A stretch of DNA of 64,000 nucleotides from an uncultured Acidobacteriota bacterium (GTDB lineage Bacteria; Acidobacteriota; Vicinamibacteria; Vicinamibacterales; UBA2999), in NCBI GenBank assembly GCA_902826065.1, contig CADEDM010000001.1:23340-87339 (forward strand), written 5' to 3'. The position numbers and the translations under genes are program-made. The notes under the pieces are model-generated. The model saw only the letters and a list, made by a program, of their open reading frames with translations, was not told the DNA's origin and did not search any database. This document shows positions 12,181 through 28,281 of this stretch, piece after piece. Each line of letters begins with the position of its first letter. Positions within the stretch are counted from its first letter, which is position 1.

Positions 12181-12190
12181 GAGCCGACGC

Positions 12191-13096
12191 TTGAGCAGAA
12201 TCGATCAAGCCCTGGAGCGACACCTGCGCGGCGGCCGCGCGCCGCTCGCGCCGCCAGTGCAGAAGGAGTTCACGTCCGCGTGGTCGCCCGACGAAGTCGG
12301 CGTCGCCGCGGCGAACCAGCCCGCCGCCGCCGCCGACGCCGTCGCGGTCGCCCCGGAGCCGGCGCGCCCGCGCGCCAGCAACTTCGAGACGATGGGCCGG
12401 CGCGAGCCCAACGGCAACGCCATGGTCACGCTGTCATCGGCCTGGCGGGAACGCCTTGCCGACGGCCGCAACGCTGATCCGACCCTGCTCGAACAGTTCC
12501 GACAGCTGGCCGGCACGCTATTCCACCTGCAGCGCGCCAACAATCTCCGCAGCGTCATGGTGACTAGTGCGACCCCCGGCGACGGCAAGACGCTCGTCTC
12601 CGTCAACCTGGCGCTGGTGCTCGCCGAGTCGTACCGGGCGCGCGTGCTGCTGGTCGACGCCGACCTGCGCAAGCCGTCGATTCCGGCGGTGCTGCCGATA
12701 GCCGATGGGGTCGGCCTGAGCGATGCGCTGCGCGCGGAGAACGACGCGCCGCTGGCGCTGATTCAGCTGACGCCGACCCTCACGCTGCTGCCTGCCGGCC
12801 AGCCCATTCCCAACTCGCTCGAGGCCCTGACGTCGCCACGCATGCGCTCGATCATGAGCGAGGCCGTCGAGCGTTTCGACTGGGTGGTCCTGGACGCCGG
12901 CCCGATCGGCCCCACCACCGACCCCCGCGTGCTCACGACCCTGGTCGACGGCGCCGTCTTCGTCGTGCGCGCGGGCGTTACCCAGTTCGATGACGTGCAG
13001 AAGGGCATCGAGGCGCTGGGCCGCGATCACCTGCTGGGCATCGTGCTCAACGGGGTGGATGGCGCGAGCGCCACGCCCTACTACGGAACGCGATAG
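12191..13096 (+). CDS. BY-kinase-like P-loop ATPase (exopolysaccharide/PEP-CTERM-locus tyrosine autokinase type)
   Basis: TTG start. N-terminus SRIDQALER. Walker A VMVTSATPGDGKTLVSVNLA, A' LLVDADLRKP, Walker B DWVVLDAGP. The C-terminus contains YY. Confidence 0.8.
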   Translation: MSRIDQALERHLRGGRAPLAPPVQKEFTSAWSPDEVGVAAANQPAAAADAVAVAPEPARPRASNFETMGRREPNGNAMVTLSSAWRERLADGRNADPTLLEQFRQLAGTLFHLQRANNLRSVMVTSATPGDGKTLVSVNLALVLAESYRARVLLVDADLRKPSIPAVLPIADGVGLSDALRAENDAPLALIQLTPTLTLLPAGQPIPNSLEALTSPRMRSIMSEAVERFDWVVLDAGPIGPTTDPRVLTTLVDGAVFVVRAGVTQFDDVQKGIEALGRDHLLGIVLNGVDGASATPYYGTR

Positions 13097-13116
13097 CCCG
13101 CGGGGCTGGAACTCGC

Positions 13117-14490: not shown

Positions 14491-14492
14491 TC

Positions 14493-15362
14493 ATGGCGAT
14501 CCTGAACGCTCTCACCGTCGACGTGGAGGACTACTTCCACGTCTCGGCCTTCGCCGCCGACGTCAAGCGCCACCATTGGGAGGCGCTCGAGAGCCGCGTC
14601 TGCGCGAACACCGATCGGTTGCTCGACATCTTCAGTGAGGCCGGCGTCACTGGCACGTTCTTCGTGCTGGGATGGGTGGCGGAACGCTTTCCCGCGCTGG
14701 TGCGGCGCATCCAGGCCGGCGGCCACGAGATCGCGTCGCACAGCTACGCCCACGAGCTGGTCTACGACTTGACCCCGGAGCAGTTTCGCGACGACCTGCG
14801 GCGGGCCGCACGCGTGCTCGAAGACGCCGCCGGAGTCGCCGTACGCGGCTATCGCGCGCCCAGCTACTCGATCACGGAGCCGTCGCTCTGGGCGTTCGAC
14901 GTGCTGGTGAGCGAGGGCTACACCTTCGACTCGAGCGTCTATCCGATTCGCCACGATCGCTACGGCATTCCCGACTTCGAACGGCTGCCGCACCGCCTCG
15001 AGCGGCACGGCGGCGAACTCTGGGAGTTGCCGGGGTCGACGGTGCGCCGTCTCGGGATGAACCTGCCGATCGGCGGCGGCGGGTACTTCCGCCAGTTTCC
15101 GTATGCGTGGACGCGCGCCGGGATCCGCGCGCTCAACGACGGCGAACAGCAGCCCGCCGTCTTCTACCTGCACCCCTGGGAGATCGACCCTGACCAGCCA
15201 CGCATGCACGGCAGCGCGTTGTCGCGGTTCCGGCACTATCGAAACCTCGACAAGACCGAAGCCCGTCTCCGGCGCCTGCTCGCGGATTTCGCCTTCGCCC
15301 CGATCGCCGACGTGCTGCGGACGCGGCAGGGCGCGGCGGCGCGGCGCGAGGCCGTGAACTGA
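14493..15362 (+). CDS. Polysaccharide deacetylase (CE4 + DUF3473; XrtA-locus subfamily type)
   Basis: MAILNALTVDVEDYFHVSAF...TFFVLGWVAERFPALVRRIQAGGHEIASHSYAHE...YRAPSYSI...FYLHPWEIDPDQP. This is only the last 289 codons of the 790-aa track ORF 12990-15362. The upstream part of that ORF is out of frame with the sugar transferase and Arg-rich. Confidence 0.9.
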   Translation: MAILNALTVDVEDYFHVSAFAADVKRHHWEALESRVCANTDRLLDIFSEAGVTGTFFVLGWVAERFPALVRRIQAGGHEIASHSYAHELVYDLTPEQFRDDLRRAARVLEDAAGVAVRGYRAPSYSITEPSLWAFDVLVSEGYTFDSSVYPIRHDRYGIPDFERLPHRLERHGGELWELPGSTVRRLGMNLPIGGGGYFRQFPYAWTRAGIRALNDGEQQPAVFYLHPWEIDPDQPRMHGSALSRFRHYRNLDKTEARLRRLLADFAFAPIADVLRTRQGAAARREAVN

Positions 15363-15372
15363 GGCCGGTCGC

Positions 15373-18300
15373 ATGTCACGCCACGTCGCATCCACAGATA
15401 TCGCCATCATCGGCATGGCGTGCCGCGTCCCTGGCGCGCCCAGCTACGGCGCTATGTGGCGCCTGCTGGCCGAGGGCCGCGAAGGCCGGACGACCCTCGA
15501 CGACGAGGCGCTGCGCCAGGCCGGTGAGCCCGAGGCGCTGTTCGCGGATCCGGCCTACGTCAAGGCCGGCATGTTCCTCGACGGCGTCCGCCTGTTCGAC
15601 CCCGGGTTCTTCGGCTTCAGTCCGCTCGACGCCCGCGTGCTCGACCCGCAGCACCGCCAGTTCCTCGAGTGCGCCTGGGAGGCCTTCGAGGATGCCGGCG
15701 TCGACCCGGGCCGCCAGCCGGGCACGATCGGCGTGTTCGCCGGTTCAGGACAGCACCTGTACTACGCGCAGCACCTGCTGACCAACGAGACGCTGGTCGA
15801 TCAGGTGGGCCGCTTCCTGCTGCGCCACACCGGCAACGACAAGGATTTCCTCGCCACCCGCGTCTCTTACTGCTTCGACCTGCGCGGGCCCAGCATCAAC
15901 CTGCAGACCGCATGCTCGACGTCGCTCGTCGCCGTGCACACGGCGATGCAGAGCCTGCTCAACGGCGAGTGCGACGTGGCGCTCGCCGGAGCGGTGACCA
16001 TCGAGCTGCCGGATCGCGTCGGCTACCTGTACCGGCCGAGTGAGATCCTCTCGCCCGACGGCCACTGCCGGCCGTTCGATGCCAGCGCCGGTGGCACGCT
16101 CTTCGGCAGCGGCGTCGCGATCGTCGTGCTGAAGAAGGCGGCGCAGGCGGTCGCGGACGGCGATCACATCCACGCGCTGATCAAGGGGTCGGCCGTCAAC
16201 AACGACGGGTCCGGCAAGGTGAGCTACCTCGCGCCGAGCGTGGACGGCCAGGCGGACGCCATCGCCGAGGCACTGGCGATGGCGGAGGTCGAGCCCGACA
16301 GCGTGAGCTACGTCGAGGCACACGGCACCGGCACCCAGCTCGGCGACCCCATCGAGGTGGCTGCGCTGTCGCAGGCTTACGGCCGCGATTCGGCCACTGC
16401 CGCGCCGTGCGGCCTCGGCTCGATCAAGTCGAACATCGGCCATCTCGACACGGCGGCTGGCACGGCCGGCCTCATCAAGCTGGCGCTTGCGCTGCAGCAC
16501 CGCACGCTGCCGCCGACGCTGCACTACACGGCGCTGAACCCGGCGATCGATCCCGCCCAGACCTCGTTCCGCGTGGTCGACCACCTGCGGCCATGGACCG
16601 GACCGTCGCCCCTGCGCGCCGGACTCAGTTCGCTTGGCGTCGGCGGCACCAACGCGCATCTCGTCGTCGAAGAGGCGCCGCCCACCGCGCCGGACGGCAC
16701 GGCGCGCGACCGGCAGCTCCTGGTGCTGTCGGCGCGCTCGAGGCCCTCGCTCGAACGTGCTCGCCAGGCCTTGGCCGCGCGCCTCGACGGTGTCGAGGCC
16801 TCGGCCCCGCGCCTGGCCGACATTGCCTACACGCTGGCCACCGGCCGGCGCGCGTTCAAGCACCGCGCGAGCCTGGTCGCTGCGGCGCCGCTCGAAGCCG
16901 CCGATCTGCTGTCGGCGCGCGAATCGGACCAGGTGGTCGTCGGCGAGACGGCAGAACAGGGACGCCGTGTGGCGTTCACGTTCGCCGGTGGCGGCGCGCA
17001 GCATCCCGGCATGGGCAAGGAGCTCTACGCCCACGAGCCGGCGTTCCGCGCCGCTCTCGACCGATGTCTGTCCGCACTCACGCGCCACACCGACTTCGAT
17101 CTCAAGCCGCTGCTCTTCCCGGCGACAGCGGAGGCCCGGCAGCACGCCGCGGCCGCGCTCGAACGTCCGAGCCGGGCGCTTCCGGCGCTGTTCTCGATGC
17201 AGTACGCCCAGGCGACCTTGTGGCGCGCGTGGGGCATCGAGCCCCACGCGTTCATCGGCCACAGCATGGGCGAGAACACGGCGGCCTGTCTCGCCGGCGT
17301 GATGGAGCTCGACGATGCGCTCGGCCTCGTGGCCTTGCGCGGCCGCCTCTTCGAACGTGTGGCGCCCGGAGCGATGCTGAGCGTGGAACTCGACGAAGCG
17401 GCCCTGGGGCCTTGGCTGGCGCCCGGGCTCGACGTCGCGGCCGTGAACGCGCCGGGCCTCACCGTCATCTCCGGTCCCGCGGCCGACGTCCGTCGTCTCC
17501 AGGAGCGGCTCGAAGCCGCGAACATCGGCTGCCAGCGCATCCGCATCGAAGTGGCCGCACACTCATCGATGCTCGAGCCGATTCTCGCCGACTTCCGCGC
17601 CTACCTGCGCTCCTTGCCGCTGTCGGCTCCCGCGACGCCCTTCATCTCCAACGTCACCGGCCGCTGGATTGAGCCGGGCGAAGCGACAGATCCCGAGTAC
17701 TGGGTGCGCCACCTCCGGCAGACCGTGCGTTTCGCCGACGGCGTCGGCCAGCTACTGCGCGACGGGCCGCCGGTGCTGCTGGAAGTAGGCCCGGGCCGTA
17801 CCCTCACGAGCCTGGCGTCACTGCATTCCGACAAGACCGCGCACCACGTGGTCCTGACGTCGATGCCGCGGGCTGACGAAGAGGCCAACGACCTGTCGCA
17901 CATGATGGGCGCGCTCGGCCGCCTGTGGGTCAATGGCGTCGATCCCGACTGGACGCGCTTCTACGAGGGCCAGCAGCGGAAGAAGCAGCCGCTGCCGACC
18001 TACTCGTTCGACCATGCCGAGTACTGGATCGACCGTAGCACCGCATCCACCGGCCGCGCGGGCGACGCGCGAGGCCAGGCCGGCGTCTACGAGCCGGTGT
18101 GGCGTCCGGCCGCGCCGCGCCCGTCGTTCGAAGCTCCTGGCGCCTGCGTCCTCGTCCTCGACGACGACCGCGACCGGCTGCGGAGCTTCGAGACGGCCCT
18201 CGTCCGCGCTGGCGCCGCGGTGCGTCTGGTCCTGGCGTCCGACCGGTGCCTCGTTGAGGGCACCGGCCCGTGCGAACTGCGCACCGGTGTGCCCGACGAC

Positions 18301-21051
18301 TATCTGCGCGTGCTCGACGCGTGCCGCGCGGCGGGCTCCACCCCCAGTCACGTGATTCACGCGCTGGGATTGGGTGCAGCGACCGGCATCGACGCCGGCC
18401 ATCACGTCGACGCGGTGCGGCGCTGCTTCGACAGCCAGTTCTTCCTGGCCCAGGCGATCGCGTCGGGCGATGCCACGCCCGTGCACTGGCTCGCGCTCTC
18501 CCACCGCGCCTGGCAGGTCGGCGGCGAGGCGCCGTGGTCGCCCTATGGCGCGCTGGCCGTGGGCATCACGAACACCTTGCCACGCGAGTTCCCCTCGTGG
18601 CTCGCCCGTGTCGTCGACGTCGAGAACCCGCGGCTCGCGGCCGAGTCGATCGACAAGATCCTGGCCGAGATGCCACAGGTGGCGGATGCCACGGTCGACG
18701 AGCCAGTGGTGGCGCACCGCGGACGGCAGCGATTCGTGCGCGACTGGCTGCGGCAGGATGCGCCCGCAGCGCTACCAAGCGTGTTGCTGCGGCCCCATGG
18801 CGTCTATCTCGTCACCGGCGGCACCGGCGGACTCGGTCTGGTGGCCGCCGGCGTGCTGGCGCAGGCAGCGCCCGCTACGCTGGTGCTGGTGTCGCGTCGC
18901 CCGTGGCCGCACCGCCAGCACTGGGACGAGCTGATTCGGCGCGGCGCGCCCGAGGCCGAGTCGCTCAACGCGCTGCTCGCGCTCGAACAGAAGGGTGCCC
19001 GTGTCGTCCTCGAAACTGCGGACATCGCCGACGCGACGTCGGTCGAGGCCGTCGTCTCCCGGACGCGACAGACCTGCGGCGCGCTGCACGGGGTCATCCA
19101 TGCCGCCGGCATCGTCGACGACGCGCCCCTGATCGCGAAGGACCTGGCGCACGCGCATCTGGTGCTGGCCCCCAAGGTCGCCGGCACGACCGCCCTCGCC
19201 AGGGCCCTGGCCTCCGCGTCGCTGGACTTCTTCGTCCTGTACTCTTCCTCGAGCGCATTCGCCGGGCTGCCGGGCCAGGCCGACTACGCCGCCGCCAACG
19301 CCTTCCTCGACGGTTTCGCCGCCTGGGCGCGCGAGCAGGGCCTGCCCTGCGTCGCCGTCGACTGGCCGGCGTGGCGTGGCACTGGACTCGCCGCCGCCAT
19401 CAGCCGTGGTGCCGCCGTGCGCCCGGCACCCGGGCGTCCCACCGACCACCCGATGCTCGGCCGATGCACGGTCGACGAGGCCGGACGTCGTGCCTTCCTG
19501 ACGCAGGTCAGCGCCGAGGACTCGTGGATGATTCGCGAGCATCGTCTCAAGGACGGCCCGGCGCTCATGCCGGGGTTCGGCTTCCTCGAGATGGCTCGGG
19601 CCGCATGGTTCGAAGGCCGTCCGGCGGGACCGTTCGAGCTGGCCGATACCTCGGTCGACTATCCGTTCATCGTCCAGGACCAGGCCCCGCGCTGGCTCGG
19701 CGTCGAGCTCTCGCCGGCATCGAACGCGTTCGTCGTGGTCAGCGAGGACGGCGACGGTCGCACGGAGCACGTCCGTGGCACTGTGCGGGACGCCTCGCCG
19801 CTCGCCGCGCGCCTCGATGTCGCTGCAATCCGGCAGCGCTGCGCGCGTGGCGTACAGCGTTTCGACGACGCCGACCACCACCCGTTCCTCCAGTTCGGCC
19901 CGCGCTGGGCGTCGCTGAAGACGGTGGCCTATGGCACGCACGAAGCGCTGATCGATCTGGATCTGGCGCCGGAGTTTCGCGCCGATCTCGACGCCTACGT
20001 GCTCCATCCGGCGCTGCTCGACATGGCCGCCGCCGGGGCCCAGGTGATCATCGAAGGCCATACGCCCACCGACGAAGTGTTCGTGCCGGTGGGCCTCGGC
20101 CGCCTGCGCGCCACCGCCGGATTCCCGTCGCGGTGTCTCAGCCACGTCACGTACAAGCCCGGCCCGGCTGGCGAGTCGCGAGAGGTAGCGCACTTCGACG
20201 TGCGCGTCGCCGACGCCGACGGTACCGTCTTCCTCGAGATCGACCACTTCGCCATGCGCCGCCTGCCCGGCACAGACGCGCTGCGGCGGCTGCCGGCGGC
20301 GGGGTCGCGCGCGATCGCCCCGACGCTCGAGCGCGCGCTCGAACTCGGCATCGACCCGGGGGAAGGGGCACGTGTGCTCGCGACGGTGCTGGCCGGCGTC
20401 ACGAGCGCGCAAGTCGCAGTGGCGCCGGTGGAGCCGCGCGTGCTCGTCCGCGAACTGCGGCAGGCGGCGGCCCCGCCGGCGCCAGCACGAGAGGTCATCG
20501 CGTTCGATCCCGACGACGATCCGGCGATTGCGCCGGCCGAGACCGTGCTCACCGCGTGCCCTGCTGTCGCGGCGGCGGTCGTCCGCTCGTTCCATGGCGA
20601 TGGCGCGACCCGGCGTCTCGTGGCCTTCTTCGTGCCCGACCACGACCACTTCGTGACGCAGGGCGAGGTGCGGCGCTACGCGCGCGAACATCTCCCCGCC
20701 GGCCAGGTCCTGACGCAACTCATCGAGCTCGACGAGCTGCCGCGCAACGGCACCGGCGTCGACCGCCGCGCGCTGCACGACCCGTCGGCGCCGGTGACCC
20801 GCATCGTCCCGCCCCGCACCACCGTCGAGAAAGCCGTCGCCCGGGTGTGGCAGGACGCGCTCGGAGTGGATGCCGTGGGCCTCACCGACAACTTCTTCGA
20901 CCTCGGGGGCCACTCGCTCCTGTCGGCGAGGATCATCGTGCAGCTCGATCGCAAGTTCGGGGTGCGCCTCAACCAGGCGACGATGGCGCTGGGCACGCTC
21001 GAGCAGATCGCGCGCGACATCGAGCGGCGCACCGAGGACAGCCCGAAGTGA
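15373..21051 (+). CDS. Type I polyketide synthase, KS-AT-KR-DH-(vestigial A-domain C-terminal subdomain)-PCP; no TE
   Basis: 1892 aa. See the domain features below. All catalytic motifs of KS, AT, KR and DH can be read directly from the translation. Confidence 0.95.
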   Translation: MSRHVASTDIAIIGMACRVPGAPSYGAMWRLLAEGREGRTTLDDEALRQAGEPEALFADPAYVKAGMFLDGVRLFDPGFFGFSPLDARVLDPQHRQFLECAWEAFEDAGVDPGRQPGTIGVFAGSGQHLYYAQHLLTNETLVDQVGRFLLRHTGNDKDFLATRVSYCFDLRGPSINLQTACSTSLVAVHTAMQSLLNGECDVALAGAVTIELPDRVGYLYRPSEILSPDGHCRPFDASAGGTLFGSGVAIVVLKKAAQAVADGDHIHALIKGSAVNNDGSGKVSYLAPSVDGQADAIAEALAMAEVEPDSVSYVEAHGTGTQLGDPIEVAALSQAYGRDSATAAPCGLGSIKSNIGHLDTAAGTAGLIKLALALQHRTLPPTLHYTALNPAIDPAQTSFRVVDHLRPWTGPSPLRAGLSSLGVGGTNAHLVVEEAPPTAPDGTARDRQLLVLSARSRPSLERARQALAARLDGVEASAPRLADIAYTLATGRRAFKHRASLVAAAPLEAADLLSARESDQVVVGETAEQGRRVAFTFAGGGAQHPGMGKELYAHEPAFRAALDRCLSALTRHTDFDLKPLLFPATAEARQHAAAALERPSRALPALFSMQYAQATLWRAWGIEPHAFIGHSMGENTAACLAGVMELDDALGLVALRGRLFERVAPGAMLSVELDEAALGPWLAPGLDVAAVNAPGLTVISGPAADVRRLQERLEAANIGCQRIRIEVAAHSSMLEPILADFRAYLRSLPLSAPATPFISNVTGRWIEPGEATDPEYWVRHLRQTVRFADGVGQLLRDGPPVLLEVGPGRTLTSLASLHSDKTAHHVVLTSMPRADEEANDLSHMMGALGRLWVNGVDPDWTRFYEGQQRKKQPLPTYSFDHAEYWIDRSTASTGRAGDARGQAGVYEPVWRPAAPRPSFEAPGACVLVLDDDRDRLRSFETALVRAGAAVRLVLASDRCLVEGTGPCELRTGVPDDYLRVLDACRAAGSTPSHVIHALGLGAATGIDAGHHVDAVRRCFDSQFFLAQAIASGDATPVHWLALSHRAWQVGGEAPWSPYGALAVGITNTLPREFPSWLARVVDVENPRLAAESIDKILAEMPQVADATVDEPVVAHRGRQRFVRDWLRQDAPAALPSVLLRPHGVYLVTGGTGGLGLVAAGVLAQAAPATLVLVSRRPWPHRQHWDELIRRGAPEAESLNALLALEQKGARVVLETADIADATSVEAVVSRTRQTCGALHGVIHAAGIVDDAPLIAKDLAHAHLVLAPKVAGTTALARALASASLDFFVLYSSSSAFAGLPGQADYAAANAFLDGFAAWAREQGLPCVAVDWPAWRGTGLAAAISRGAAVRPAPGRPTDHPMLGRCTVDEAGRRAFLTQVSAEDSWMIREHRLKDGPALMPGFGFLEMARAAWFEGRPAGPFELADTSVDYPFIVQDQAPRWLGVELSPASNAFVVVSEDGDGRTEHVRGTVRDASPLAARLDVAAIRQRCARGVQRFDDADHHPFLQFGPRWASLKTVAYGTHEALIDLDLAPEFRADLDAYVLHPALLDMAAAGAQVIIEGHTPTDEVFVPVGLGRLRATAGFPSRCLSHVTYKPGPAGESREVAHFDVRVADADGTVFLEIDHFAMRRLPGTDALRRLPAAGSRAIAPTLERALELGIDPGEGARVLATVLAGVTSAQVAVAPVEPRVLVRELRQAAAPPAPAREVIAFDPDDDPAIAPAETVLTACPAVAAAVVRSFHGDGATRRLVAFFVPDHDHFVTQGEVRRYAREHLPAGQVLTQLIELDELPRNGTGVDRRALHDPSAPVTRIVPPRTTVEKAVARVWQDALGVDAVGLTDNFFDLGGHSLLSARIIVQLDRKFGVRLNQATMALGTLEQIARDIERRTEDSPK
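15397..16675 (+). other. PKS ketosynthase domain
   Basis: DIAIIGMACRVPGA; active-site Cys in QTACSTSLVA (codon 15913-15915); EAHGTGTQLGDPIE; KSNIGHLDTAAG; ends GGTNAHLVVEE. Confidence 0.9.
16969..17818 (+). other. PKS acyltransferase domain
   Basis: VAFTFAGGGAQHPGMG; nucleophile elbow FIGHSMGE (Ser codon 17263-17265). The specificity motif reads VAAHS, neither a clear HAFH nor YASH, so the substrate is not called. Confidence 0.85.
18796..19380 (+). other. PKS ketoreductase catalytic subdomain (structural subdomain lies upstream from about 18130)
   Basis: HGVYLVTGGTGGLGLV Rossmann motif; SSSSAFAGLPGQADYAAANAFLD (catalytic Tyr). Confidence 0.85.
19447..20290 (+). other. PKS dehydratase (double hot-dog) domain located AFTER the KR
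   Basis: HPMLGRC...IREHRLKDGPALMPGFGFLEMA (catalytic His), LQFGPRWASL, LHPALLDMAAAGAQ (catalytic Asp motif). Confidence 0.8.
20491..20780 (+). other. Vestigial adenylation-domain C-terminal subdomain (A8-A10 region only)
   Basis: RRLVAFFVPDHDHFVTQGEVRRYAREHLPAGQVLTQLIELDELPRNGTGVDRRAL. The A10 Lys is replaced (NGTGVDRR versus NGKLDRR in the neighbouring NRPS). No A1-A7 core lies upstream of it. Confidence 0.65.
20812..21030 (+). other. NRPS-type carrier (PCP/thiolation) domain of the PKS
   Basis: VARVWQDALGVDAVGLTDNFFDLGGHSLLSARI; phosphopantetheinyl Ser codon 20914-20916. Confidence 0.85.
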
Positions 21052-21833
21052 ACCCCCTCTTCTTCGGACCCGCGGACTCGCCGCTCTACGGCGTGCACCA
21101 GCCGCCCCAGATCGCGGGCAACGGTGGCGGCGTCGTGCTGTGCTATCCGTTCGGCCAGGAGTACATGCGGGCCCACCGCGCCTGCCGGCAGCTCTCGCTG
21201 CTGCTGGCCCGGCGCGGCTTCCACGTGCTCCGCTTCGACTACCGCGGCACCGGCGACTCGAGTGGCGACATCGACGACGCCGGCGTCGAGCGCTGGGTCG
21301 ACGATGCGGGCGCGGCTATCGACGAGCTGCGCGAACTGAGCGGCCTGTCACAGGTCTCGGTGATCGGGCTCCGGCTCGGCGCGTGGTTCGCGGCCCGGGC
21401 CACCGAGCGGCGCACCGACGTCGACCGGCTCGTCGTCTGGGATCCGATCGTCGACGGCGCCGCCTACCTCGAGGAGATTCGCGGGGAAGTCGCCGCCGAG
21501 GTGCCGACCAGCTACAGCCCGCCGTCGGGCAGCCGGGTGTTCGCCGACGGCACGATCCACTACAACGGGTTCGAGATCCCCGCACGCCTGGCCGGTGAGC
21601 TGTCACGCCTGCGGCTGGACGCGACCGTGCCCGCGTCGGCGCGGCGCGTGCTGCAACTCGTCTCGCACGAGGTCCCGGCGTTCCTGCGGTTGCGCGATGC
21701 TTGGCGCGCGCATCCCGCCTACCGGTATCAGTTCACGCCGGCTCCGCACGACTGGAACTTCGTCGACGAGTTCGGCGGGATTCTGCTGCCGCAGCCGGCG
21801 ATTCAGGCGATCGTCGAGTGGATGAGCGAGTGA
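21048..21833 (+). CDS. Alpha/beta hydrolase fold protein, 'exosortase-system hydrolase 2'-like (copy B)
   Basis: GTG start in a GTGA overlap with the PKS stop (21048-21051). VNPLFFGPADSPLYGVHQPP...VVLCYPFGQEYMRAHRACRQLSLLLARRGFHVLRFDYRGTGDSSG...VVWDPIVDGAAYL. It appears in the track only as the tail of the artefactual 1187-aa ORF 18270-21833. Confidence 0.8.
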   Translation: MNPLFFGPADSPLYGVHQPPQIAGNGGGVVLCYPFGQEYMRAHRACRQLSLLLARRGFHVLRFDYRGTGDSSGDIDDAGVERWVDDAGAAIDELRELSGLSQVSVIGLRLGAWFAARATERRTDVDRLVVWDPIVDGAAYLEEIRGEVAAEVPTSYSPPSGSRVFADGTIHYNGFEIPARLAGELSRLRLDATVPASARRVLQLVSHEVPAFLRLRDAWRAHPAYRYQFTPAPHDWNFVDEFGGILLPQPAIQAIVEWMSE

Positions 21834-21840
21834 GCGAGCG

Positions 21841-22689
21841 ATGAGAGAACGCGTGCTTCGCATCGGGCGGCCGACGCCCCTGGCCAGCGTCGCCACCGAG
21901 CCCGACGCCTTCGACGCGTCGAAGCCGGCCGTGCTGATCCTGAACTCGGGAGTGCTGCACCACATCGGGTCGTGCCGGATGTCGGTACGGCTGGCGCGCC
22001 GGCTGGCGGAACGCGGCCTGCTCGCCGTGCGCTTCGACTTCTCGGGCCTCGGCGACAGCGAGCCGCGCCTGGCGACGCCGAGCTTCGAAGAAGTGTCGGT
22101 GACCGAGTCCACGGAGGTGATGGACCTGCTGCAGCGCACACGCGGCGTGCAGTCGTTCATCCTCTACGGCCTCTGCTCCGGCGCCGACGGCTCGTACAAC
22201 ACCGCGCTGCGCGATCCACGCGTCGTGGGGATCAGCCAGTTCGACCCGTACTGCTACGTGACCCCCCGTTACTACCTGCGGTACTACCTGCAGGCGGCGC
22301 GTGATCCGCGCCGGTGGCGCAGCGTGGCGACGCGCGCACTGAAGACCCTGTTCGGCCGAGAGACCGCGCCGCAGACGACGGTCGAGTCGGAGTTCGTGGA
22401 GTTGCCCAGCTACGTCCGCGTCTTCCCATCGCGGGAGTCGATTGCCGCCGGCCTGGCGGCGCTCGTGCAGCGCGGCGTGCACGTGCAGGCGAACTTCCCG
22501 CGCGGACCGCTGTACAACCACCGGTCGCAGTTCGTCGACAGCTTTCGCGACGTCGACTTCCGCGGCCTGGTCGAGGTCAACTACTACGGTGACGCGAATC
22601 ACATCGTGACGCAGCCCGTCCTGCAGGGCCGCATCATCGACGGCGTCGCCGACTGGGCCGCGCGCGTGGCCATGGGCGGTGCGCGATGA
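21841..22689 (+). CDS. Alpha/beta hydrolase, 'exosortase-system hydrolase 1'-like (copy B)
   Basis: PAVLILNSGVLHHIGSCRMSVRLARRLAERGLLAVRFDFSGLGDSEP...FILYGLCSGADGSY (Cys codon 22174-22176 at the nucleophile elbow). Confidence 0.8.
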   Translation: MRERVLRIGRPTPLASVATEPDAFDASKPAVLILNSGVLHHIGSCRMSVRLARRLAERGLLAVRFDFSGLGDSEPRLATPSFEEVSVTESTEVMDLLQRTRGVQSFILYGLCSGADGSYNTALRDPRVVGISQFDPYCYVTPRYYLRYYLQAARDPRRWRSVATRALKTLFGRETAPQTTVESEFVELPSYVRVFPSRESIAAGLAALVQRGVHVQANFPRGPLYNHRSQFVDSFRDVDFRGLVEVNYYGDANHIVTQPVLQGRIIDGVADWAARVAMGGAR

Positions 22690-25600
22690 CGTCCGAGACA
22701 CCGCCGATGTCCTCTGCGCTCACGGTCCTGGTCGTTGGCGATCAATCGCTGACGATCGAATGCAGCGAGATCCTGCGCGCTGCCGGGCACACCATCACCG
22801 CGGTCGTGACCGGTGACGCCCGCGTCCGCCGCTGGTCCGAGGAGCGCGGCGTGGCGGCCCTGCCCGACGCGCAGACCGCCCTCGACAGCCCATCCGCCGC
22901 GGCGTTCGACTACCTGCTGTCGATCGCCAACCTGAAGCTGCTGCCGCCGGCGCTGGTCAGCCGTGCGCGGTTCGGCGCCGTCAACTTCCACGACGGCCCG
23001 CTGCCGCGCTACGCCGGTCTCAACGCGCCGGCGTGGGCGCTCATGGCCGGTGAGCAGCAGCACGGCATCACCTGGCACGTGATGACCGACGAGGTCGATG
23101 CCGGCGACGTGCTGCTCGAGCGCGCCGTGGCCGTCGACGACGATGACACCTCGTTCACGCTGAATGCGCGCTGCTACGAGGTCGGCATCCAGTCGTTCGC
23201 GGAGCTCGTGCCCCGCCTGGCCTCACGGTCGGCCGCCGGCGCGCCGCAGGACCTGTCGCTGCGCACGTATTTCGCCCGGGCGGAGCGGCCGCGCGGCCTG
23301 GCCACCCTCGACTGGCGGCAGCCCGCCGCGCATCTCGACCGGGTCGTGCGTGCGCTCGACTTCGGGCCGTATCGCAATCCACTGGCCGTGCCCAAGGTGT
23401 GGGTCGGCTCGCGGCTCCTGGTGGCACGCCGGAGCCAGGTACTCGAAACGGGCGACGCGGCTACGCCAGGGACGATCAAAGAAGTTGGCGAACGGCGTCT
23501 CGTCGTGGCCTGCGCGCAGGGCGCCCTGGCGTTGAGCGACCTCACCGACATGAGCGGCGCCGCCGTGGACGTCCGCGCGGTGGCCGCGGCGGAAGGGCTG
23601 CGTGTGGGCAGTCGCCTGCCGGTGTCCGACGACGCACGCCTCGACGCGGTCGACCGCCTCGCCGCTCAGATTGCGCCGCACGACGGCCGGTTCCGGGCGC
23701 TCATGCGGCGCTTCACGCCCACCGAGGCGCCGGCGGCCGGCGCCGAATCGACCGTGCGCACCTGGCACGAGTGGGACGGCCGCACCGCCAGACCGGACAC
23801 GTTGCTCGCCGCGATCGTCCTGGTGCTGGCGCGCATCACTCAGTCGCCGGCGCTGGCGTTCGGCTTCGTACCGTCGTCGCGCGCAGTGCTGGACGGACAC
23901 CTGCGCGCCTACGTGCACGACGTCGTGCCCGTCGAGATCGCGTGCGCCGATGCAGACGCGGTGGCGGAGCTCGCCGCGCGCGTGGCGGCGGCCGCCGCCC
24001 ACGCCGAGACCGCGGTGGGCATGTCGCGCGACCTGTTGCTTCGTGAAGGCGCGGCCGCGGCGCTCGAGTCGCCCGACCGCGCGCCGATCCGCGTCGTGCG
24101 CGCCACGGGGCTCCTCCCCGATACGGCGCGTGCCGCCGCCGGCGCGGCCGTGATGACGTTCCAGGTGACCGACGACGGGCGCATGGGCTTGCTGGTGGAT
24201 GCGGGGCTGGTGTCCCCAGACATCGCCCGCGAGATTCTCGCGTCGATCGGCCAGGTCGTACCGGTGGTCGAGGACGGCCTCGGACGCGTCGCCGACGTCG
24301 ACCTGCTCACGCGCGATCAGCGCGAGCGCCTGATGGAGTGGGCGAGGGGTGACGCGCCCGACGGCGTCGCGCCGCTTCCCGACGTCTGCGTCCACGAGCT
24401 GTTCGAGGCCCAGGTCGCCCGCTCGCCCGGCCATGTGGCCTGCGTCTGCCGCGGCCAGGAGCTGACCTACGCGGATCTGAACCAGGCGGCCAACCGCCTC
24501 GCCCGCCACCTGCGCACCTCGGGCGTCGGCACCGGTGACCGCGTCGGCGTCATGGTCGACCGGTCGCTGGAGATGGTGGTCGTGCTCTACGCGGTGCACA
24601 AGGCCGGCGCGGCCTACGTGCCGCTCGACCCGAAGTACCCGTCGGAGCGTCTCGGGTTGGTGCTCGCCGGCGCCGACGTCCGTTGTCTCGTCGTGCGTGT
24701 GGCCACTTCCGGCGTCGACGCCGCCATCCCGCAGGTCGTCCTCGAGGACGTGTGGCCGCGGCTCGCCGAACTGGCGCCAGACAACCTTGGCGCCCTGGCC
24801 ACGCCCGACGATCTCGCCTACGTCATTTACACCTCCGGCTCGTCGGGCACTCCGAAGGGCGTGATGGTCGAGCACCGCAACGTGGTGAACTTCTTCGCTG
24901 GAATGGACCGGCGGATCGACCGCACGCCAGGCACGTGGCTCGCCGTGACCAGCATCTCGTTCGACATCTCGGTGCTCGAGCTGTTCTGGACGCTGGCCAG
25001 GGGCTTCACCGTCGTCCTGCATGCCGATGGGCCCGCGAGCGCCTCGCTCGTCGTGCCGCAGGCGGCGCGCGCCAAGGGCATCGAGTTCGGGCTGTTCTAC
25101 TGGAACGTCGCCTCACCCGACAGCGACCACGCGCAGGAGAAATACCGGCTGCTGCTCGAGAGCGCGAAATACGCCGACGCGAACGGCTTCACCGCCGTGT
25201 GGACGCCGGAGCGCCACTTCGCGTCATTCGGCGGTCTCTACCCGAATCCGGCTGTCACGTCAGCGGCGCTCGCCATGGTCACGAGCCGCGTGGCCCTGCG
25301 CGCCGGCAGTTGCGTCGTGCCGCTGCATCACCCGATCCGGATCGCCGAGGAATGGGCGGTCGTCGACAACCTCTCGGGCGGCCGCGTCGGCATGTCGGTG
25401 GCGTCGGGCTGGGCCACGCCAGATTTCGCGATTCGCCCCGAGGCCTTCGAAGGGTCGAAGCGCCTGCTGTTCGAGAACACGGCGATCGTGAAGCGGCTCT
25501 GGCGCGGCGAGACCGTGGAGTTCCCGGGACCGAAGGGGCCGGTGCAGGTGCGCACCCTGCCGCGGCCGCTCCAGAAAGAGCTCCCCGTCTGGGTGACGAC

Positions 25601-27356
25601 CGCGGGCAACGTCGAGACCTTCGTGTCGGCAGGCCGCATGGGCGCCAACCTGCTGACCCACCTGCTCGGCCAGACCGTCGAGGAAGTGGCGGAGAAGGTC
25701 GCCGCCTACCGCGCGGCTTGGCGCGACGCCGGGCACGCGGGGCGTGGCATCGTGACGCTGATGCTCCACACGTTCGTGGGCCCCGACCCTGACGAGGTCG
25801 AGCGCATCGTGCGCGGACCGATGAAGGAGTATCTGCGCAGCGCCGCCAACCTGGTCAAGGCCGCCGCCTGGCAGTTCCCGACGTTCAAGCGCCTGTCGGA
25901 CGAACAGGGCAAGACCCTCGACGATTTCTTCAACACGATCGCCGAGGACGACATGGATGCCCTGCTGGAGTTCGCATTCCAGCGCTACTTCCGCACGAGC
26001 GGTCTGTTCGGCACCGTCGAGGAGTGCCAGGCGATGGTGGGGCGCGTCGACGGGGCCGACATCGACGAGATCGCGTGCCTGATCGACTACGGCATCGACA
26101 CCGACGTCGTGCTCGAGCATCTGCCGTACCTGAACGCTCTGCGCGAGTCGGTGCAGGCGCGTGGCGACGATCGCCGCCACTCCCTCGCCGGCCTGCTCGG
26201 CAGCGGCGTCATCACACACTTCCAGTGCACGCCGTCGATGGCGCGGATGGTGCTCGCAGAGCCGGCCGCGACCGTGGCTCTTGGCGAGCTCCGCGAGGTC
26301 CTAGTCGGAGGGGAAGCGTTGCCCCCCGACGTCGCCGACGCCCTCGCGACGGCGGCGCCGGGGCGCGTGACCAACGTCTATGGCCCGACCGAGACGACCG
26401 TCTGGTCGGCGGCCAGCCGCGTCAGTCCTGGCGGCGGCGCGGTGCCGATCGGCACGCCGTTGCTGAACCAGCAGCTCTACGTGCTCGATAGCGTGGGCCG
26501 GCCGCTGCCGCCTGGCGTACCTGGCGAGCTCGTCATCGGCGGCATGGGAGTCACGCGCGGCTACTGGAACCTCGACGCCAGCACGCGTGAGCGTTTCGTG
26601 GCGGACACTCTGTCGCCACGTCCCGCAGCGCGGATGTATCGCACCGGCGATCGTGGGCGCGTGCGGCCGGATGGGCAGTTCGAGTGTCTCGGGCGGCTCG
26701 ACCAGCAGGTCAAGATCCGCGGCTACCGCGTCGAGCCCGGCGAGATCGAGGCGCGGCTGTGCGAACATGCCGGCATCGCCGAAGCGGCCGTGATGCTGCG
26801 CGAGGATCGTCCGGGCGACCAGCGTCTGGTCGCCTACGTGCGCCCGGCCCCGAGCCAGCGACCGGCACCTGACGACGTTCGCCGCCATGCCGCCGAGCGC
26901 CTGCCCGAGTACATGGTGCCGTCGATGGTCGTCGTGCTCGACCAGATGCCGCGGACACCGAACGGCAAGCTCGACCGTCGCGCGTTGCCCGCACCGGACT
27001 CGGTGACGGCGCCCGCGGCGCCCGCGGCGTCCGCGAGCGCTGCGACGCTGTCGACGGGCGTCTCGGAGCCGCTCGTGACCGAAGTCTGGGAACACGCGCT
27101 CGGTGTGCCGGTGCGTGGCCGCCAGGACAACTTCTTCGATCTCGGCGGGCACTCGCTGCTCGTCGTCCAGGTTCTGGCTGAGCTCCGCAAGCGAGTCAAG
27201 AAGCCGCTTGCGCTGACCGATCTCTTCAAGTACACCACGGTGGAGAGTTTGGCCGCGTTCATCGACGGTCAGCAGGTGTCGACGCGAACTCAGGCCGGAG
27301 CCCGGGCGAGTCGACGGCGCGACGCGCTCGCGCGGAGGGAACGCGCGTTCGAATGA
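22686..27356 (+). CDS. NRPS-like initiation protein: N-formyltransferase, C-domain-like remnant, adenylation domain interrupted by a luciferase-like monooxygenase, then PCP; no TE
   Basis: 1556 aa. ATGA overlap with the upstream hydrolase (22686-22689). See the domain features below. Confidence 0.95.
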   Translation: MTSETPPMSSALTVLVVGDQSLTIECSEILRAAGHTITAVVTGDARVRRWSEERGVAALPDAQTALDSPSAAAFDYLLSIANLKLLPPALVSRARFGAVNFHDGPLPRYAGLNAPAWALMAGEQQHGITWHVMTDEVDAGDVLLERAVAVDDDDTSFTLNARCYEVGIQSFAELVPRLASRSAAGAPQDLSLRTYFARAERPRGLATLDWRQPAAHLDRVVRALDFGPYRNPLAVPKVWVGSRLLVARRSQVLETGDAATPGTIKEVGERRLVVACAQGALALSDLTDMSGAAVDVRAVAAAEGLRVGSRLPVSDDARLDAVDRLAAQIAPHDGRFRALMRRFTPTEAPAAGAESTVRTWHEWDGRTARPDTLLAAIVLVLARITQSPALAFGFVPSSRAVLDGHLRAYVHDVVPVEIACADADAVAELAARVAAAAAHAETAVGMSRDLLLREGAAAALESPDRAPIRVVRATGLLPDTARAAAGAAVMTFQVTDDGRMGLLVDAGLVSPDIAREILASIGQVVPVVEDGLGRVADVDLLTRDQRERLMEWARGDAPDGVAPLPDVCVHELFEAQVARSPGHVACVCRGQELTYADLNQAANRLARHLRTSGVGTGDRVGVMVDRSLEMVVVLYAVHKAGAAYVPLDPKYPSERLGLVLAGADVRCLVVRVATSGVDAAIPQVVLEDVWPRLAELAPDNLGALATPDDLAYVIYTSGSSGTPKGVMVEHRNVVNFFAGMDRRIDRTPGTWLAVTSISFDISVLELFWTLARGFTVVLHADGPASASLVVPQAARAKGIEFGLFYWNVASPDSDHAQEKYRLLLESAKYADANGFTAVWTPERHFASFGGLYPNPAVTSAALAMVTSRVALRAGSCVVPLHHPIRIAEEWAVVDNLSGGRVGMSVASGWATPDFAIRPEAFEGSKRLLFENTAIVKRLWRGETVEFPGPKGPVQVRTLPRPLQKELPVWVTTAGNVETFVSAGRMGANLLTHLLGQTVEEVAEKVAAYRAAWRDAGHAGRGIVTLMLHTFVGPDPDEVERIVRGPMKEYLRSAANLVKAAAWQFPTFKRLSDEQGKTLDDFFNTIAEDDMDALLEFAFQRYFRTSGLFGTVEECQAMVGRVDGADIDEIACLIDYGIDTDVVLEHLPYLNALRESVQARGDDRRHSLAGLLGSGVITHFQCTPSMARMVLAEPAATVALGELREVLVGGEALPPDVADALATAAPGRVTNVYGPTETTVWSAASRVSPGGGAVPIGTPLLNQQLYVLDSVGRPLPPGVPGELVIGGMGVTRGYWNLDASTRERFVADTLSPRPAARMYRTGDRGRVRPDGQFECLGRLDQQVKIRGYRVEPGEIEARLCEHAGIAEAAVMLREDRPGDQRLVAYVRPAPSQRPAPDDVRRHAAERLPEYMVPSMVVVLDQMPRTPNGKLDRRALPAPDSVTAPAAPAASASAATLSTGVSEPLVTEVWEHALGVPVRGRQDNFFDLGGHSLLVVQVLAELRKRVKKPLALTDLFKYTTVESLAAFIDGQQVSTRTQAGARASRRRDALARRERAFE
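22719..23560 (+). other. Formyltransferase domain (Fmt/ArnA/LgrA-F-like; N- and C-subdomains)
   Basis: LTVLVVGDQSL...; catalytic Asn/His in AVNFHDGPLPRYAGLNA; Asp in HVMTDEVDAGDVLL; followed by a Formyl_trans_C-like beta-barrel (PKVWVGSRLLV...). Confidence 0.8.
24384..25035 (+). other. Adenylation domain, N-terminal portion (A1-A4)
   Basis: LTYADLNQAANRLARHL (A1), AVHKAGAAYVPLDP (A2), LAYVIYTSGSSGTPKGV (A3), SISFDISVLELF (A4; Asp235-equivalent present). Confidence 0.9.
25077..26160 (+). other. Luciferase-like monooxygenase (LLM/MOx) domain inserted between A4 and A5
   Basis: GIEFGLFYWN...YADANGFTAVWTPERHF...VVPLHHPIRIAEEWAVVDNLSGGRVGMSVASGW...VWVTTAGN.... Resembles the 'natural product biosynthesis LLM domain' (recalled as TIGR04020/MupA type). 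Confidence 0.8.
26217..26995 (+). other. Adenylation domain, C-terminal portion (A5-A10)
   Basis: NVYGPTETTVW (A5), GELVIGGMGVTRGYW (A6), YRTGDRGR (A7), KIRGYRVEPGEIE (A8), LPEYMVPS (A9), PRTPNGKLDRRAL (A10, Lys intact). Confidence 0.9.
27061..27270 (+). other. PCP/thiolation domain of the NRPS-like protein
   Basis: VTEVWEHALGVPVRGRQDNFFDLGGHSLLVVQV; Ser codon 27153-27155. Confidence 0.85.
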
Positions 27357-27384: not shown

Positions 27385-28281
27385 GTGATGTCTCCCCCCC
27401 TGACCGTGTCCGTGGTCGTGCCGTGCTACAACTACGGCGCGTACCTGCCGGCGTGCCTCGATTCGGTGCTGGCGCAGACGCGGCCGGCGTTCGAGATCGT
27501 GGTCGTCGACGACGGCTCAACGGACGACACGGCAGCGGTGGTCGCGCCGTACCTGGGCGACGGCCGGGTGCACTTCCATCAGCAGGCGAACAGCGGCCAG
27601 GCGACCGCCAAGAACCTCGGCATCCGGCATTCGCGCGGCGACATCGTGGCGTTCCTCGACGCCGACGATCTATGGATGCCCGAGAAGCTCGCGCGACAGG
27701 TGCCGCTGTTCGATGATCCGGCGGTGGGCGTGACGTTCACCGGCCAGCGATCGATCGACGCCGAGGGGCGTCCGCTCGCGACGTTCGGGCGTCGCGGTTA
27801 CCTGACGTTCAGGCGCGGGCGGATCACGCCGTGGCTCGGCTTCGAGAACATCGTGCCCTTCTCGTCGTCGGCGGTGCGGCGGGCGCTGCTCGTGGAGAAC
27901 CGCGGCTTCGACACGACGCTGGGAATGGGGATCGACTGGGACCTGTGGCTGCGGCTGTCGCTGGTCACGGACTTCGACTTCGTGCCCGATCCGCTGTTCG
28001 CCTATCGCGTGCACGGCCACCAGATGTCGCGCAACCTCAGTGGCCGCATCGACGCGTCGGAGCACATCTTCCGCACGTTCGTATCGCGGCACCCCGGCGC
28101 CTTCTCAACGCAGGAACTGCAGGCCGTGGAGTTCTACAACGCGTGCTCGCGCGGCCGTGCGTTGCGCGGCGTCGACCGCTCGCGCTCCGACGCTTATTTC
28201 CGGATGGCGCTTCGGATGAAGCCGTGGTCGCCCAGACCGTACCTGGGACTGCTGAAGAACGCCGTGGCGGGCCGGCGCTAG
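27385..28281 (+). CDS. Glycosyltransferase family 2 (last gene of the + operon)
   Basis: LTVSVVVPCYNYGAYLPACLDSVLAQTRPAFEIVVVDDGSTDDT...QATAKNLGIRHSRGDIVAFLDADDLW. The start is the GTG at 27385 or the ATG at 27388. Confidence 0.85.
   Translation: MMSPPLTVSVVVPCYNYGAYLPACLDSVLAQTRPAFEIVVVDDGSTDDTAAVVAPYLGDGRVHFHQQANSGQATAKNLGIRHSRGDIVAFLDADDLWMPEKLARQVPLFDDPAVGVTFTGQRSIDAEGRPLATFGRRGYLTFRRGRITPWLGFENIVPFSSSAVRRALLVENRGFDTTLGMGIDWDLWLRLSLVTDFDFVPDPLFAYRVHGHQMSRNLSGRIDASEHIFRTFVSRHPGAFSTQELQAVEFYNACSRGRALRGVDRSRSDAYFRMALRMKPWSPRPYLGLLKNAVAGRR

Follow-up and report, generated by a model that had tools for sequence, protein, structure and literature searches.

A 64,000-nucleotide stretch of DNA from an uncultured Acidobacteriota bacterium (contig CADEDM010000001.1, positions 23,340 to 87,339; hereafter the window) carries at positions 22686-27356 (+ strand) an open reading frame (ORF) for a nonribosomal peptide synthetase (NRPS) of 1556 amino acids, which we refer to as F-NRPS. 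Its start codon and the stop codon of the preceding gene share the sequence ATGA. The protein consists, in this order, of a formyltransferase of the Fmt/ArnA type, the C-terminal half of a condensation (C) domain, a glycine-type adenylation (A) domain split by a luciferase-like monooxygenase (LLM), and a peptidyl carrier protein (PCP). All four domains had been called in an initial annotation of this DNA, and each of the calls proved right.

The formyltransferase begins with a catalytic N-terminal lobe at 22719-23225 (residues ~12-180; PF00551), which holds Asn100, His102 and Asp138, and continues with a C-terminal lobe, a beta-barrel of the Fmt/ArnA type, at 23283-23585 (residues ~200-300; PF02911). 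Pfam matched the two as Formyl_trans_N at residues 69-171 (3e-20) and Formyl_trans_C at residues 207-300 (1e-9). The remnant of the C domain, which comprises only the C-terminal subdomain and the C-A linker, occupies 23586-24401 (residues ~301-572). It is followed by the first part of the A domain with motifs A1-A4 (24402-25055; residues 573-790; PF00501), the inserted FMN-dependent LLM, or MOx domain (25074-26168; residues ~797-1161; TIGR04020, PF00296), and the second part of the A domain with motifs A5-A10 and the small C-terminal subdomain (26178-27020; residues ~1165-1445; PF13193). AMP-binding was matched in two stretches, the first at residues 573-784 (1e-85), with AMP-binding_C at 1353-1428 and Bac_luciferase at 800-1063 (5e-47); the NCBIfam amino acid adenylation model TIGR01733 was likewise matched in two stretches, with 422 bits. 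The PCP lies at 27075-27263 (residues 1464-1526; PF00550, matched as PP-binding at 1464-1526), with the phosphopantetheine serine, Ser1490, in a GGHSL motif that a pattern search placed at residues 1487-1491. All of these features are on the + strand. No thioesterase (TE) domain was found in F-NRPS by the Pfam scan.

The motifs of the individual domains were located within the protein. In the formyltransferase, the string VNFHDGPLPRYAG lies at residues 99-111 and EVDAGDVLL at 136-144; the half C domain contains TLLAAIVLVLARITQSPALAFGFVPSSR at residues 372-399. By pattern, the A-domain motifs start at residues 593 (A1), 715 (A3), 759 (A4, FDIS, 759-762), 1230 (A5, NVYGPTE, 1230-1236), 1280 (A6), 1318 (A7), 1336 (A8), 1406 (A9) and 1426 (A10). 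The A2 pattern had no match, and an A2-like VHKAGAAYVPLDP at ~638-650 was assigned by eye only. With A4 at 759-762, A5 at 1230-1236 and the LLM at ~797-1161, the monooxygenase is therefore inserted between A4 and A5, and it falls between specificity positions 239 and 278 of the A domain. The insert matched the MupA/Atu3671 LLM model TIGR04020 at residues 801-1153 over the full length of the model (1-341), with 480 bits against a cut-off of 244.

Asn100, His102, Asp138 and Ser1490 are invariant in 120 of the 120 homologs among the matches listed, and the LLM is the best-conserved region of F-NRPS across the family. All three catalytic parts therefore look to be under selection. The PCP is followed by an Arg-rich C-terminal tail (27264-27353, + strand; residues 1527-1556) with a conserved RAxARR...RR pattern, in which R1540 and R1544 are invariant and A1541 and R1551 are at least 90% conserved across the family. 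This tail may be a docking element or may associate with the membrane or a polymer.

In a sequence search of the Protein Data Bank (PDB), the formyltransferase was matched by the ArnA formyltransferase domain (ArnA-FT; 5e-22) and Escherichia coli Fmt (2e-21) over residues ~47-311, with alignments ending at ~290-311; the F domain of LgrA matched at only 1e-7. An AlphaFold2 (AF2) model of residues 1-575, built from 42 sequences, had a mean predicted local distance difference test score (pLDDT) of 93.7 and a predicted template-modelling score (pTM) of 0.89. When its first ~310 residues were compared with Fmt and ArnA-FT by Foldseek, the target-normalised TM-score was 0.80-0.85 over ~310 columns. 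As modelled, the formyltransferase part is a complete two-lobe Fmt/ArnA fold and not merely the N-terminal catalytic domain.

Fmt/ArnA-FT similarity of ~1e-22 against 1e-7 for LgrA F, sugar N-formyltransferases among the structural matches and a context of polysaccharide synthesis (described below) could also mean that the domain adds the formyl group to an amino sugar of the polysaccharide, in the manner of ArnA and WbkC, or that the Fmt domain, the LLM or both are inactive relics. We consider this very unlikely. The fusion to A-PCP is kept in at least 594 genomes, and the Fmt and half-C unit also heads multimodular NRPSs, where its loading role is obvious. As for relics, the triad and the residues of the folate loop are invariant in 120 of the 120 homologs listed, and no other region of the protein is as well conserved as the LLM.

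A pattern search found neither HHxxxDG nor HHxxxD anywhere in F-NRPS. Column conservation at residues 296-572 is low (mean 0.37-0.46), and the region was assessed with a profile of these residues from 24 family members that was searched against the PDB. The profile matched condensation domains only, and always their C-terminal subdomain and C-A linker (chain ~177-477). Matches included McyB (4e-19), Txo1 (2e-16), 7c1k (query 13-250 to chain 177-434), TycC (query 31-249 to chain 266-520) and EntF (query 66-269 to chain 238-455). PF00668 was matched by 10 of the 24 family members, at best with 9e-9, and by the window copy with E = 0.058. All 50 matches listed by Foldseek for the 1-575 model were formyltransferases and gave the half C domain no structural confirmation; the half-C-domain call rests on the sequence profile. 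In the model the half C domain folds with high confidence and packs onto the Fmt part, and the pTM of 0.89 indicates that the two are predicted as one rigid unit. We infer that the half C domain is kept as a platform that packs on the A domain, with the formyltransferase in the place of the catalytic lobe of the C domain, near the PCP.

The first 572 residues were matched by 1494 representatives (clustered at 50% identity, E <= 1e-30), some of which are ordinary multimodular NRPSs. In the search of representatives, the Fmt and half-C unit was seen at the head of such proteins in P0185, P0250 and P0196. P0185 is ordered F-A-PCP-C-A(LLM+methyltransferase)-PCP, and its LLM-split A domain thus lies one module later. 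The occurrence of the unit on multimodular NRPSs indicates that it is a general loading device.

The initial annotation had read the Asn/His/Asp triad as intact, the region after it as the C-terminal half of a C domain without HHxxxDG, and the LLM as lying between A4 and A5, and all three readings held when examined by homolog comparison, by the 24-member profile and pattern search, and by TIGR04020 and motif positions, respectively. Its identification of an Fmt-like formyltransferase was also correct, but what it described as an N-terminal domain is the full two-lobe Fmt/ArnA fold in the AF2 model and the Foldseek comparison.

The specificity code of the A domain was read by anchoring on the A-domain core motifs and is DILQLGVVWK (D760, I761, L764, Q1180, L1206, G1208, V1231, V1239, W1240 and K1428). 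According to a 2025 survey, DILQLGMIWK is common to all glycine-activating domains that bear a MOX, and the variable positions of glycine codes are 299, 322 and 330 (PMC12283262). The window code equals DILQLGMIWK at 8 of 10 positions, and the differences fall only at positions named as variable in that survey. Among the 120 homologs listed, all have DILQxG(M/V)(I/V)WK and four have exactly DILQLGMIWK. As the code nearly equals the MOX-type glycine code, glycine is the predicted substrate of the A domain. Module 2 of LgrA was dropped as a glycine reference; its code is approximately DIANLCIIYK, and the two LgrA A domains matched almost equally well (313 and 331 bits), so that the comparison is uninformative on specificity. 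The closest solved relative of the inserted LLM is the Ox domain of PuwE (PDB 6KET; 1e-102, query 797-1161).

F-NRPS shares an operon with a polyketide synthase (PKS) and two genes for alpha/beta-fold proteins that lie between them (21048-22689). The PKS gene (15373-21051, + strand) encodes a one-module protein of 1892 amino acids, which Pfam resolved as ketosynthase (KS), acyltransferase (AT), ketoreductase (KR), dehydratase (DH), an AMP-binding_C remnant and an NRPS-type carrier. KS residues Cys181, His317 and His357, the AT motif GHSMG, the KR motif YAAAN, the DH motifs and the carrier motif GGHSL are present. The protein has no PKS-type acyl carrier protein (ACP), and its sole carrier is an NRPS-type PCP behind the AMP-binding_C remnant at residues 1723-1795 (region ~1640-1892); this end of the protein looks as if a downstream C-A-PCP module had collapsed onto the PKS, such as the one seen in the locus designated L018 (see below).

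The association with the PKS was followed in a neighbourhood sample of 84 loci around F-NRPS relatives, 70 of which span at least 15 kb. An orthologous PKS (KS 52-68% identical) adjoins F-NRPS in 58 of the 84 loci, so that the stand-alone module of the initial annotation has to be given up. The PKS is mostly immediately downstream of F-NRPS and starts, in most of the 58 loci, tens to a few hundred nucleotides past the end of the F-NRPS match; in Rhodobacteraceae it is immediately upstream. In locus L018 (Polyangiaceae), a colinear F-halfC-A(LLM)-PCP gene (9938-14701) is followed after a 3-nucleotide gap by the PKS (14705-20281) and then by a full C-A-PCP module (20295-23642). Locus L003 (1096-14809) is arranged in the same way, with the PKS followed by a complete C-A-PCP module. 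A second amino acid would therefore join the chain in some lineages. No natural fusion of the NRPS and the PKS was seen among the 84 loci, as none contained an ORF of more than 2400 amino acids; very long proteins with the same N-terminus were considered as NRPS-PKS fusions and rejected, since they are ordinary multimodular NRPSs.

As F-NRPS has no functional C domain, it can only initiate. Since it is unable to condense with anything upstream and the PKS bears a terminal TE in 48 loci, the assembly order runs from the NRPS to the PKS, and this order is well supported. The PKS gene precedes the NRPS gene in the window, which might suggest the reverse, namely that a PKS-made acyl chain is joined to the nitrogen of glycine to give an N-acyl-glycine lipid, echoing the N-acyl amino acid synthases that are reported to be linked to PEP-CTERM/exosortase systems. 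This is extremely improbable: F-NRPS lacks HHxxxDG and has only half a C domain, its intact formyltransferase would occupy the same nitrogen, the NRPS directly precedes the PKS in most loci with the terminal TE on the PKS, and the genes of L018 are colinear as NRPS, PKS and C-A-PCP.

The two genes between the PKS and F-NRPS encode a hydr2_PEP-like protein (21048-21833, + strand; Pfam Hydrolase_4) and a hydr1_PEP-like protein (21841-22689, + strand). Their best models are TIGR03101 (1e-27) and TIGR03100 (3.5e-18), which nonetheless were matched below cut-off (97 against 203 bits for hydr2 and 66 against 168 bits for hydr1). The nucleophile elbow, placed by motif and not by structure, reads GLRLGA in hydr2 and GLCSGAD in hydr1. 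GLCSGAD, a G-x-C-x-G box with Cys at the nucleophile position, is kept in 6 of 6 hydr1 orthologs, and GLR(L/M)GA, with Arg at that position, in 6 of 6 hydr2 orthologs. Among the loci of at least 15 kb, a TE is fused to the PKS in 48, a free hydr2/hydr1 pair is present in 5, and both occur together in 0. The pair-bearing loci are L004, L005, L009, L017 (shorter than 15 kb), L036 and L044, to which the window is added.

Judged from these motifs and their distribution, hydr1 is probably a transacylase that off-loads the chain in lieu of a TE, with hydr2 as its non-catalytic partner. If the Cys is placed correctly, hydr1 would be a thioester-forming transacylase, which fits transfer to an acceptor better than plain hydrolysis. 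A Cys 'lipase box' is used for acyl transfer in polyhydroxyalkanoate synthases. There are hints here that the XrtA-associated hydrolases 1 and 2 in general off-load thioesters from carrier proteins. A second hydr2-like/hydr1-like pair is present in the window at 7306-8921 and 8981-10015 (both - strand), with 34% and 31% identity to the proteins encoded at 21048-22689. The same features, a Cys-box (GICSA) and no Ser, recur in this second pair, which lies beside an ORF for a GSDH-like beta-propeller; a carrier partner is not evident.

The genes around this cassette belong to polysaccharide synthesis, as the initial annotation had said in placing F-NRPS in an exopolysaccharide (EPS) operon; NCBIfam and Pfam matches of the window genes agree. 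Directly downstream of F-NRPS, after a 28-nucleotide gap, is a family 2 glycosyltransferase (GT2; 27385-28281, + strand; PF00535 6e-37). Upstream, at 10588-15362 (+ strand), NCBIfam identified a chain-length determinant, a tyrosine autokinase, a priming glycosyltransferase and a deacetylase, which were grouped as one + strand block with F-NRPS and whose gene limits were set by GC content at third codon positions (GC3). The priming glycosyltransferase (13117-14490, + strand; TIGR03013) scored 436 against a cut-off of 393 and the deacetylase (~14427-15362, + strand; TIGR03006) 392 against 276. An ORF of 790 amino acids listed at 12990-15362 (+ strand) is a composite, with the priming glycosyltransferase in a different frame, as judged by third-position GC and family matches. 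The locus also contains GT2 enzymes, a flippase-like protein, an export protein and an ATPase. Of the XrtA-type markers, the chain-length determinant (267 against 279), the tyrosine kinase (148 against 231), the export protein (146 against 180) and the ATPase (222 against 324) scored below cut-off.

The EPS locus appears to extend to about 33-36 kb of the window. Two overlapping candidate ORFs there, 33915-36038 (- strand) with fn3/Ig-like matches and 34651-35712 (+ strand) without a family match, both have coding-like GC3. After the polysaccharide genes, at 36683-41326, are an amidase (GatA/AtzE-like), a SnoaL-like protein, an ORF of unknown function and a cytochrome P450.

Polysaccharide genes also surround the relatives. 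At least one was found in 50 of the 70 loci of at least 15 kb with a deliberately narrow tblastn panel. In Shimia abyssi the genes are ordered GT2, Wzx, PKS-TE, GT2, NRPS, Wzz, Bac_transf, Wzy-like and AT3-SGNH; in Luteitalea, glycosyltransferases are followed by the NRPS, the PKS and two hydrolases; and in Sandaracinus amylolyticus the NRPS stands after Poly_export and before a chain-length-determinant-like protein. F-NRPS lies between export and chain-length genes in Sandaracinus, L013 (Steroidobacteraceae) and L002, and a genome of 4.4 Mb has export, chain-length, kinase and outer-membrane protein genes followed by the NRPS. A special GT2, with weak matches of the Glyco_transf_21 and rhamnosyltransferase-like kind, always stands beside the PKS-TE gene of the TE-type cassette, in ~40 loci from several phyla (for example at 11110-12132 of L046). 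An ortholog of this GT2 is absent from the window, and the GT2 at 27385-28281 is not orthologous to it.

Given the ordinary type I TE with which most relatives end, the product could instead be a small metabolite that diffuses away, for instance a signal, a surfactant or an antibiotic; it would be released by hydrolysis, and its genes would only be co-located or co-regulated with those for the polysaccharide. In roseobacters the cluster has been regarded as one for secondary metabolism (PMC5014874), and some variants, as is normal for natural-product lines, go on to a C-A-PCP module. We regard this explanation as rather unlikely, as the gene is found inside loci of the Wzx/Wzy or XrtA type, among export, chain-length and glycosyltransferase genes, in unrelated phyla. 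A dedicated GT2 between or beside the PKS and NRPS genes in ~40 loci argues against it as well, as does the replacement of the TE in the window by relatives of XrtA-associated hydrolases, one of them with a Cys 'lipase box'.

We propose that F-NRPS initiates a two-enzyme NRPS-PKS line that is encoded within a putative XrtA-type EPS locus, and we give this reading, with the steps that follow, a probability of roughly 0.5. It is directly supported by the domains, their intact motifs, the glycine-type code, the insertion site of the LLM, the PKS linkage, the gene order and the polysaccharide context. Each of the chemical steps is inferred, as are the sequence in which formylation and hydroxylation take place, the length of the chain and the nature of the acceptor. 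The A domain would activate glycine and load it onto Ser1490 of the PCP, and the Fmt/ArnA-type domain would then formylate the amine of the tethered glycine with formyl-tetrahydrofolate (formyl-THF). F domains are known to formylate PCP-tethered amino acids with N10- or N5-formyl-THF, and formylglycine is the PKS starter in conglobatin, oxazolomycin and rhizopodin (PMC4504003). Next, the inserted flavin monooxygenase would hydroxylate the alpha-carbon of N-formylglycyl-S-PCP, as proposed for the MOx of MtaG and MelG, with the formyl group standing in for the upstream acyl chain that the MtaG MOx sees. In MtaG/MelG, the MOx is proposed to hydroxylate the glycine alpha-carbon, whereupon the amide is released and the 2-oxo acid stays on the carrier (PMC11411415, PMC9396620). 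The Ox domain of PuwE, together with an aminotransferase domain, is proposed to help convert a carrier-bound acyl chain into a 2-hydroxy-3-amino acyl (PMC4219810).

The KS of the adjacent PKS would take over the N-formyl-alpha-hydroxyglycyl unit, or a glyoxylyl thioester if formamide is lost, and at least one malonyl extension, keto-reduction and dehydration would follow. Finally, the hydr1-like Cys enzyme and its hydr2-like partner, or in most relatives the fused TE, would free the chain from the carrier; it would most probably be put onto the polysaccharide of the locus or serve as a building block of it. A tethered N-formyl, alpha-oxidised residue, as suggested in the initial annotation, thus stays the best chemical reading, as a hypothesis.

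The fate of the formyl group may differ from this. F-NRPS could be a generator of glyoxylyl thioester in which formylation only enables the MOx, formamide is then split off as a traceless handle, in line with that idea of the initial annotation, and a 2-oxoacetyl group primes the PKS; extension, reduction and dehydration would then give a reactive 4-oxobut-2-enoyl group. Such a route follows the logic of MtaG/MelG, in which an N-acyl-alpha-hydroxyglycine yields an amide and a glyoxylyl thioester, and the half C domain, MOx-split glycine A domain and PCP resemble an MtaG-type module with the N-lobe of its C domain swapped for Fmt. It would, however, spend formyl-THF to produce formamide, when a free glycyl thioester would shed ammonia after hydroxylation without any formylation. 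N-acyl-alpha-hydroxyglycines are moreover fairly stable at neutral pH, as in peptidyl-alpha-hydroxyglycine chemistry. The sequence is compatible both with loss of formamide, giving a glyoxylyl starter, and with its retention, giving a unit of the N,O-acetal type; we consider the glyoxylyl route unlikely. Oxazole formation as in conglobatin and oxazolomycin was rejected, as no cyclodehydratase-like gene was found among the neighbours scanned and the MOx would be left unexplained.

Several observations count against the proposed two-enzyme line. No PKS lies within 10 kb in 26 of the 84 loci; several of these are on truncated contigs, but full-length loci such as Sandaracinus L001, L002 and L013 are also without a nearby PKS, which indicates that F-NRPS can work or be off-loaded without one. 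The AT has an atypical specificity motif, VAAH, and the order KS-AT-KR-DH is like that of iterative synthases of the polyunsaturated fatty acid/enediyne type; this leaves room for iterative use and for different chain lengths. Several of the XrtA-family matches are under the curated cut-offs, a PEP-CTERM-like ending is absent from the window ORFs of at least 60 amino acids, and no exosortase was found among the subset of window ORFs scanned, although both could be encoded beyond the window. That F-NRPS adjoins polysaccharide genes is no proof that its product is covalently bound to the polymer. Formylation followed by alpha-hydroxylation could also simply destroy the residue, giving formamide and a glyoxylyl group, which would be wasteful.

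More tentatively, though still as a possibility worth setting out, the cassette could be a polysaccharide-modifying line shared across phyla, which places an acyl unit derived from N-formyl-alpha-hydroxyglycine onto the EPS or its lipid-linked repeat, or supplies it as a primer or aglycone. The acyl unit may be a C4 or longer chain that bears an N,O-acetal. If this is true, the hydr1/hydr2 relatives would be acyltransferases that off-load carriers, made up of a Cys-nucleophile enzyme and a pseudo-enzyme partner. This would in turn suggest what the long-unexplained XrtA hydrolase pair does and to which class the product of the orphan PKS/NRPS cluster of roseobacters belongs.

F-NRPS was compared with known systems. 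CongA (conglobatin), OzmO (oxazolomycin) and RizA (rhizopodin) likewise have an F-A(Gly)-PCP initiation module that feeds a KS and malonate extension (PMC4504003). Their A domain is uninterrupted and they have no monooxygenase, and they belong to long antibiotic lines with an oxazole-forming cyclodehydratase, whereas the window has a one-module PKS in a polysaccharide context. LgrA (linear gramicidin; PDB 5ES5, 6MFZ) also has a formyltransferase fused to A-PCP and is the top overall sequence match in the PDB; its F domain formylates a PCP-tethered residue, according to work cited in PMC4504003. However, the F domains of the two proteins are only distantly alike, and LgrA loads valine and has no MOx, whereas F-NRPS has a full two-lobe Fmt and a half C domain before the A domain and a glycine code.

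MtaG and MelG (myxothiazol/melithiazol; C-A(MOx)-PCP-TE) share with F-NRPS an LLM-split glycine A domain and a near-equal code, and the substrate of F-NRPS would likewise be an N-acylated glycyl thioester. The parallel had been drawn in the initial annotation and gains from the glycine-type code common to both (DILQLGMIWK and DILQLGVVWK). MtaG and MelG, however, terminate their lines and have both an intact C domain and a TE; the amide is set free as the product, and glyoxylate is waste. F-NRPS has a half C domain with a formyltransferase in place of the missing half, lacks a TE and starts its line; the likeness is confined to the A(MOx) part, and F-NRPS is not a member of the MtaG/MelG module type. 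The Ox domain of PuwE, from puwainaphycin synthetase, is the closest solved relative of the insert, but it sits between PKS and NRPS modules instead of splitting an A domain, and its substrate is a fatty beta-amino acyl chain.

A conserved hybrid PKS/NRPS cluster of roseobacters, reported by Martens et al. in 2007 as described in PMC5014874, still had no identified product according to that 2016 paper. It has the same two core proteins, in the Rhodobacteraceae gene order PKS, glycosyltransferase, NRPS within a Wzx/Wzy locus. In the best tblastn segment, the window NRPS shares 42-45% identity with its counterparts in Shimia, Leisingera JC11 (L077), Sulfitobacter and Roseovarius, and the KS is 56-60% identical. 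In the roseobacter cluster the PKS carries a fused TE, and a dedicated GT2 separates the two genes. Both are missing from the window, which has instead the hydr2/hydr1 pair, a putative XrtA-type locus and a different GT2 after the NRPS.

The XrtA hydrolase 1/2 pair (TIGR03100/TIGR03101) likewise consists of two unrelated alpha/beta-fold genes beside a carrier system in an XrtA-type EPS locus. According to the TIGRFAMs genome property, that pair accompanies an acyl-CoA ligase, an ACP and a pyridoxal phosphate-dependent decarboxylase. The window proteins differ in that they score far below the cut-offs and in that the carrier system of the window is NRPS-PKS and not ligase and ACP.

The full architecture occurs in more than 120 clusters (90% identity) that are 42-58% identical to the window copy. 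An F-NRPS relative is present in at least 594 species-representative genomes from at least 9 phyla, and carriers include alpha-, beta- and gamma-proteobacteria, Myxococcota, Acidobacteriota, Gemmatimonadota, Planctomycetota, Cyanobacteria, Chloroflexota, Actinomycetota and Salinivenus. In RefSeq the relatives bear the generic name 'MupA/Atu3671 family FMN-dependent luciferase-like monooxygenase'. In the literature searched, we found no characterised product for the F-NRPS family and no description of formylation and monooxygenase domains in one protein, although journals outside the search might hold one. The window copy is therefore one more member of a widespread family that lacks a characterised product. 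The remark in the initial annotation that the combination had not been described stands as far as characterisation is concerned, but the architecture itself is common; of its concern that the architecture might be common and already tied to a characterised product, only the first half came true. Overall, its interpretation is partly supported.

Formylating loading modules and MOx-split glycine A domains are each known, but no paper that joins them in one initiation module through a half C domain was found in the literature searched; no characterised system is known to join these two NRPS features in this way. The F-NRPS family is among the more widespread NRPS architectures, and its link to a PKS and its usual polysaccharide context point to a chemical decoration or building block, common but so far unrecognised, in the extracellular polysaccharides of bacteria. 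Knowledge of the product would name the output of the roseobacter cluster and show the purpose of N-formylation and alpha-hydroxylation of a tethered glycine, and a possible role for the XrtA-associated hydrolase pair would come from the same work.

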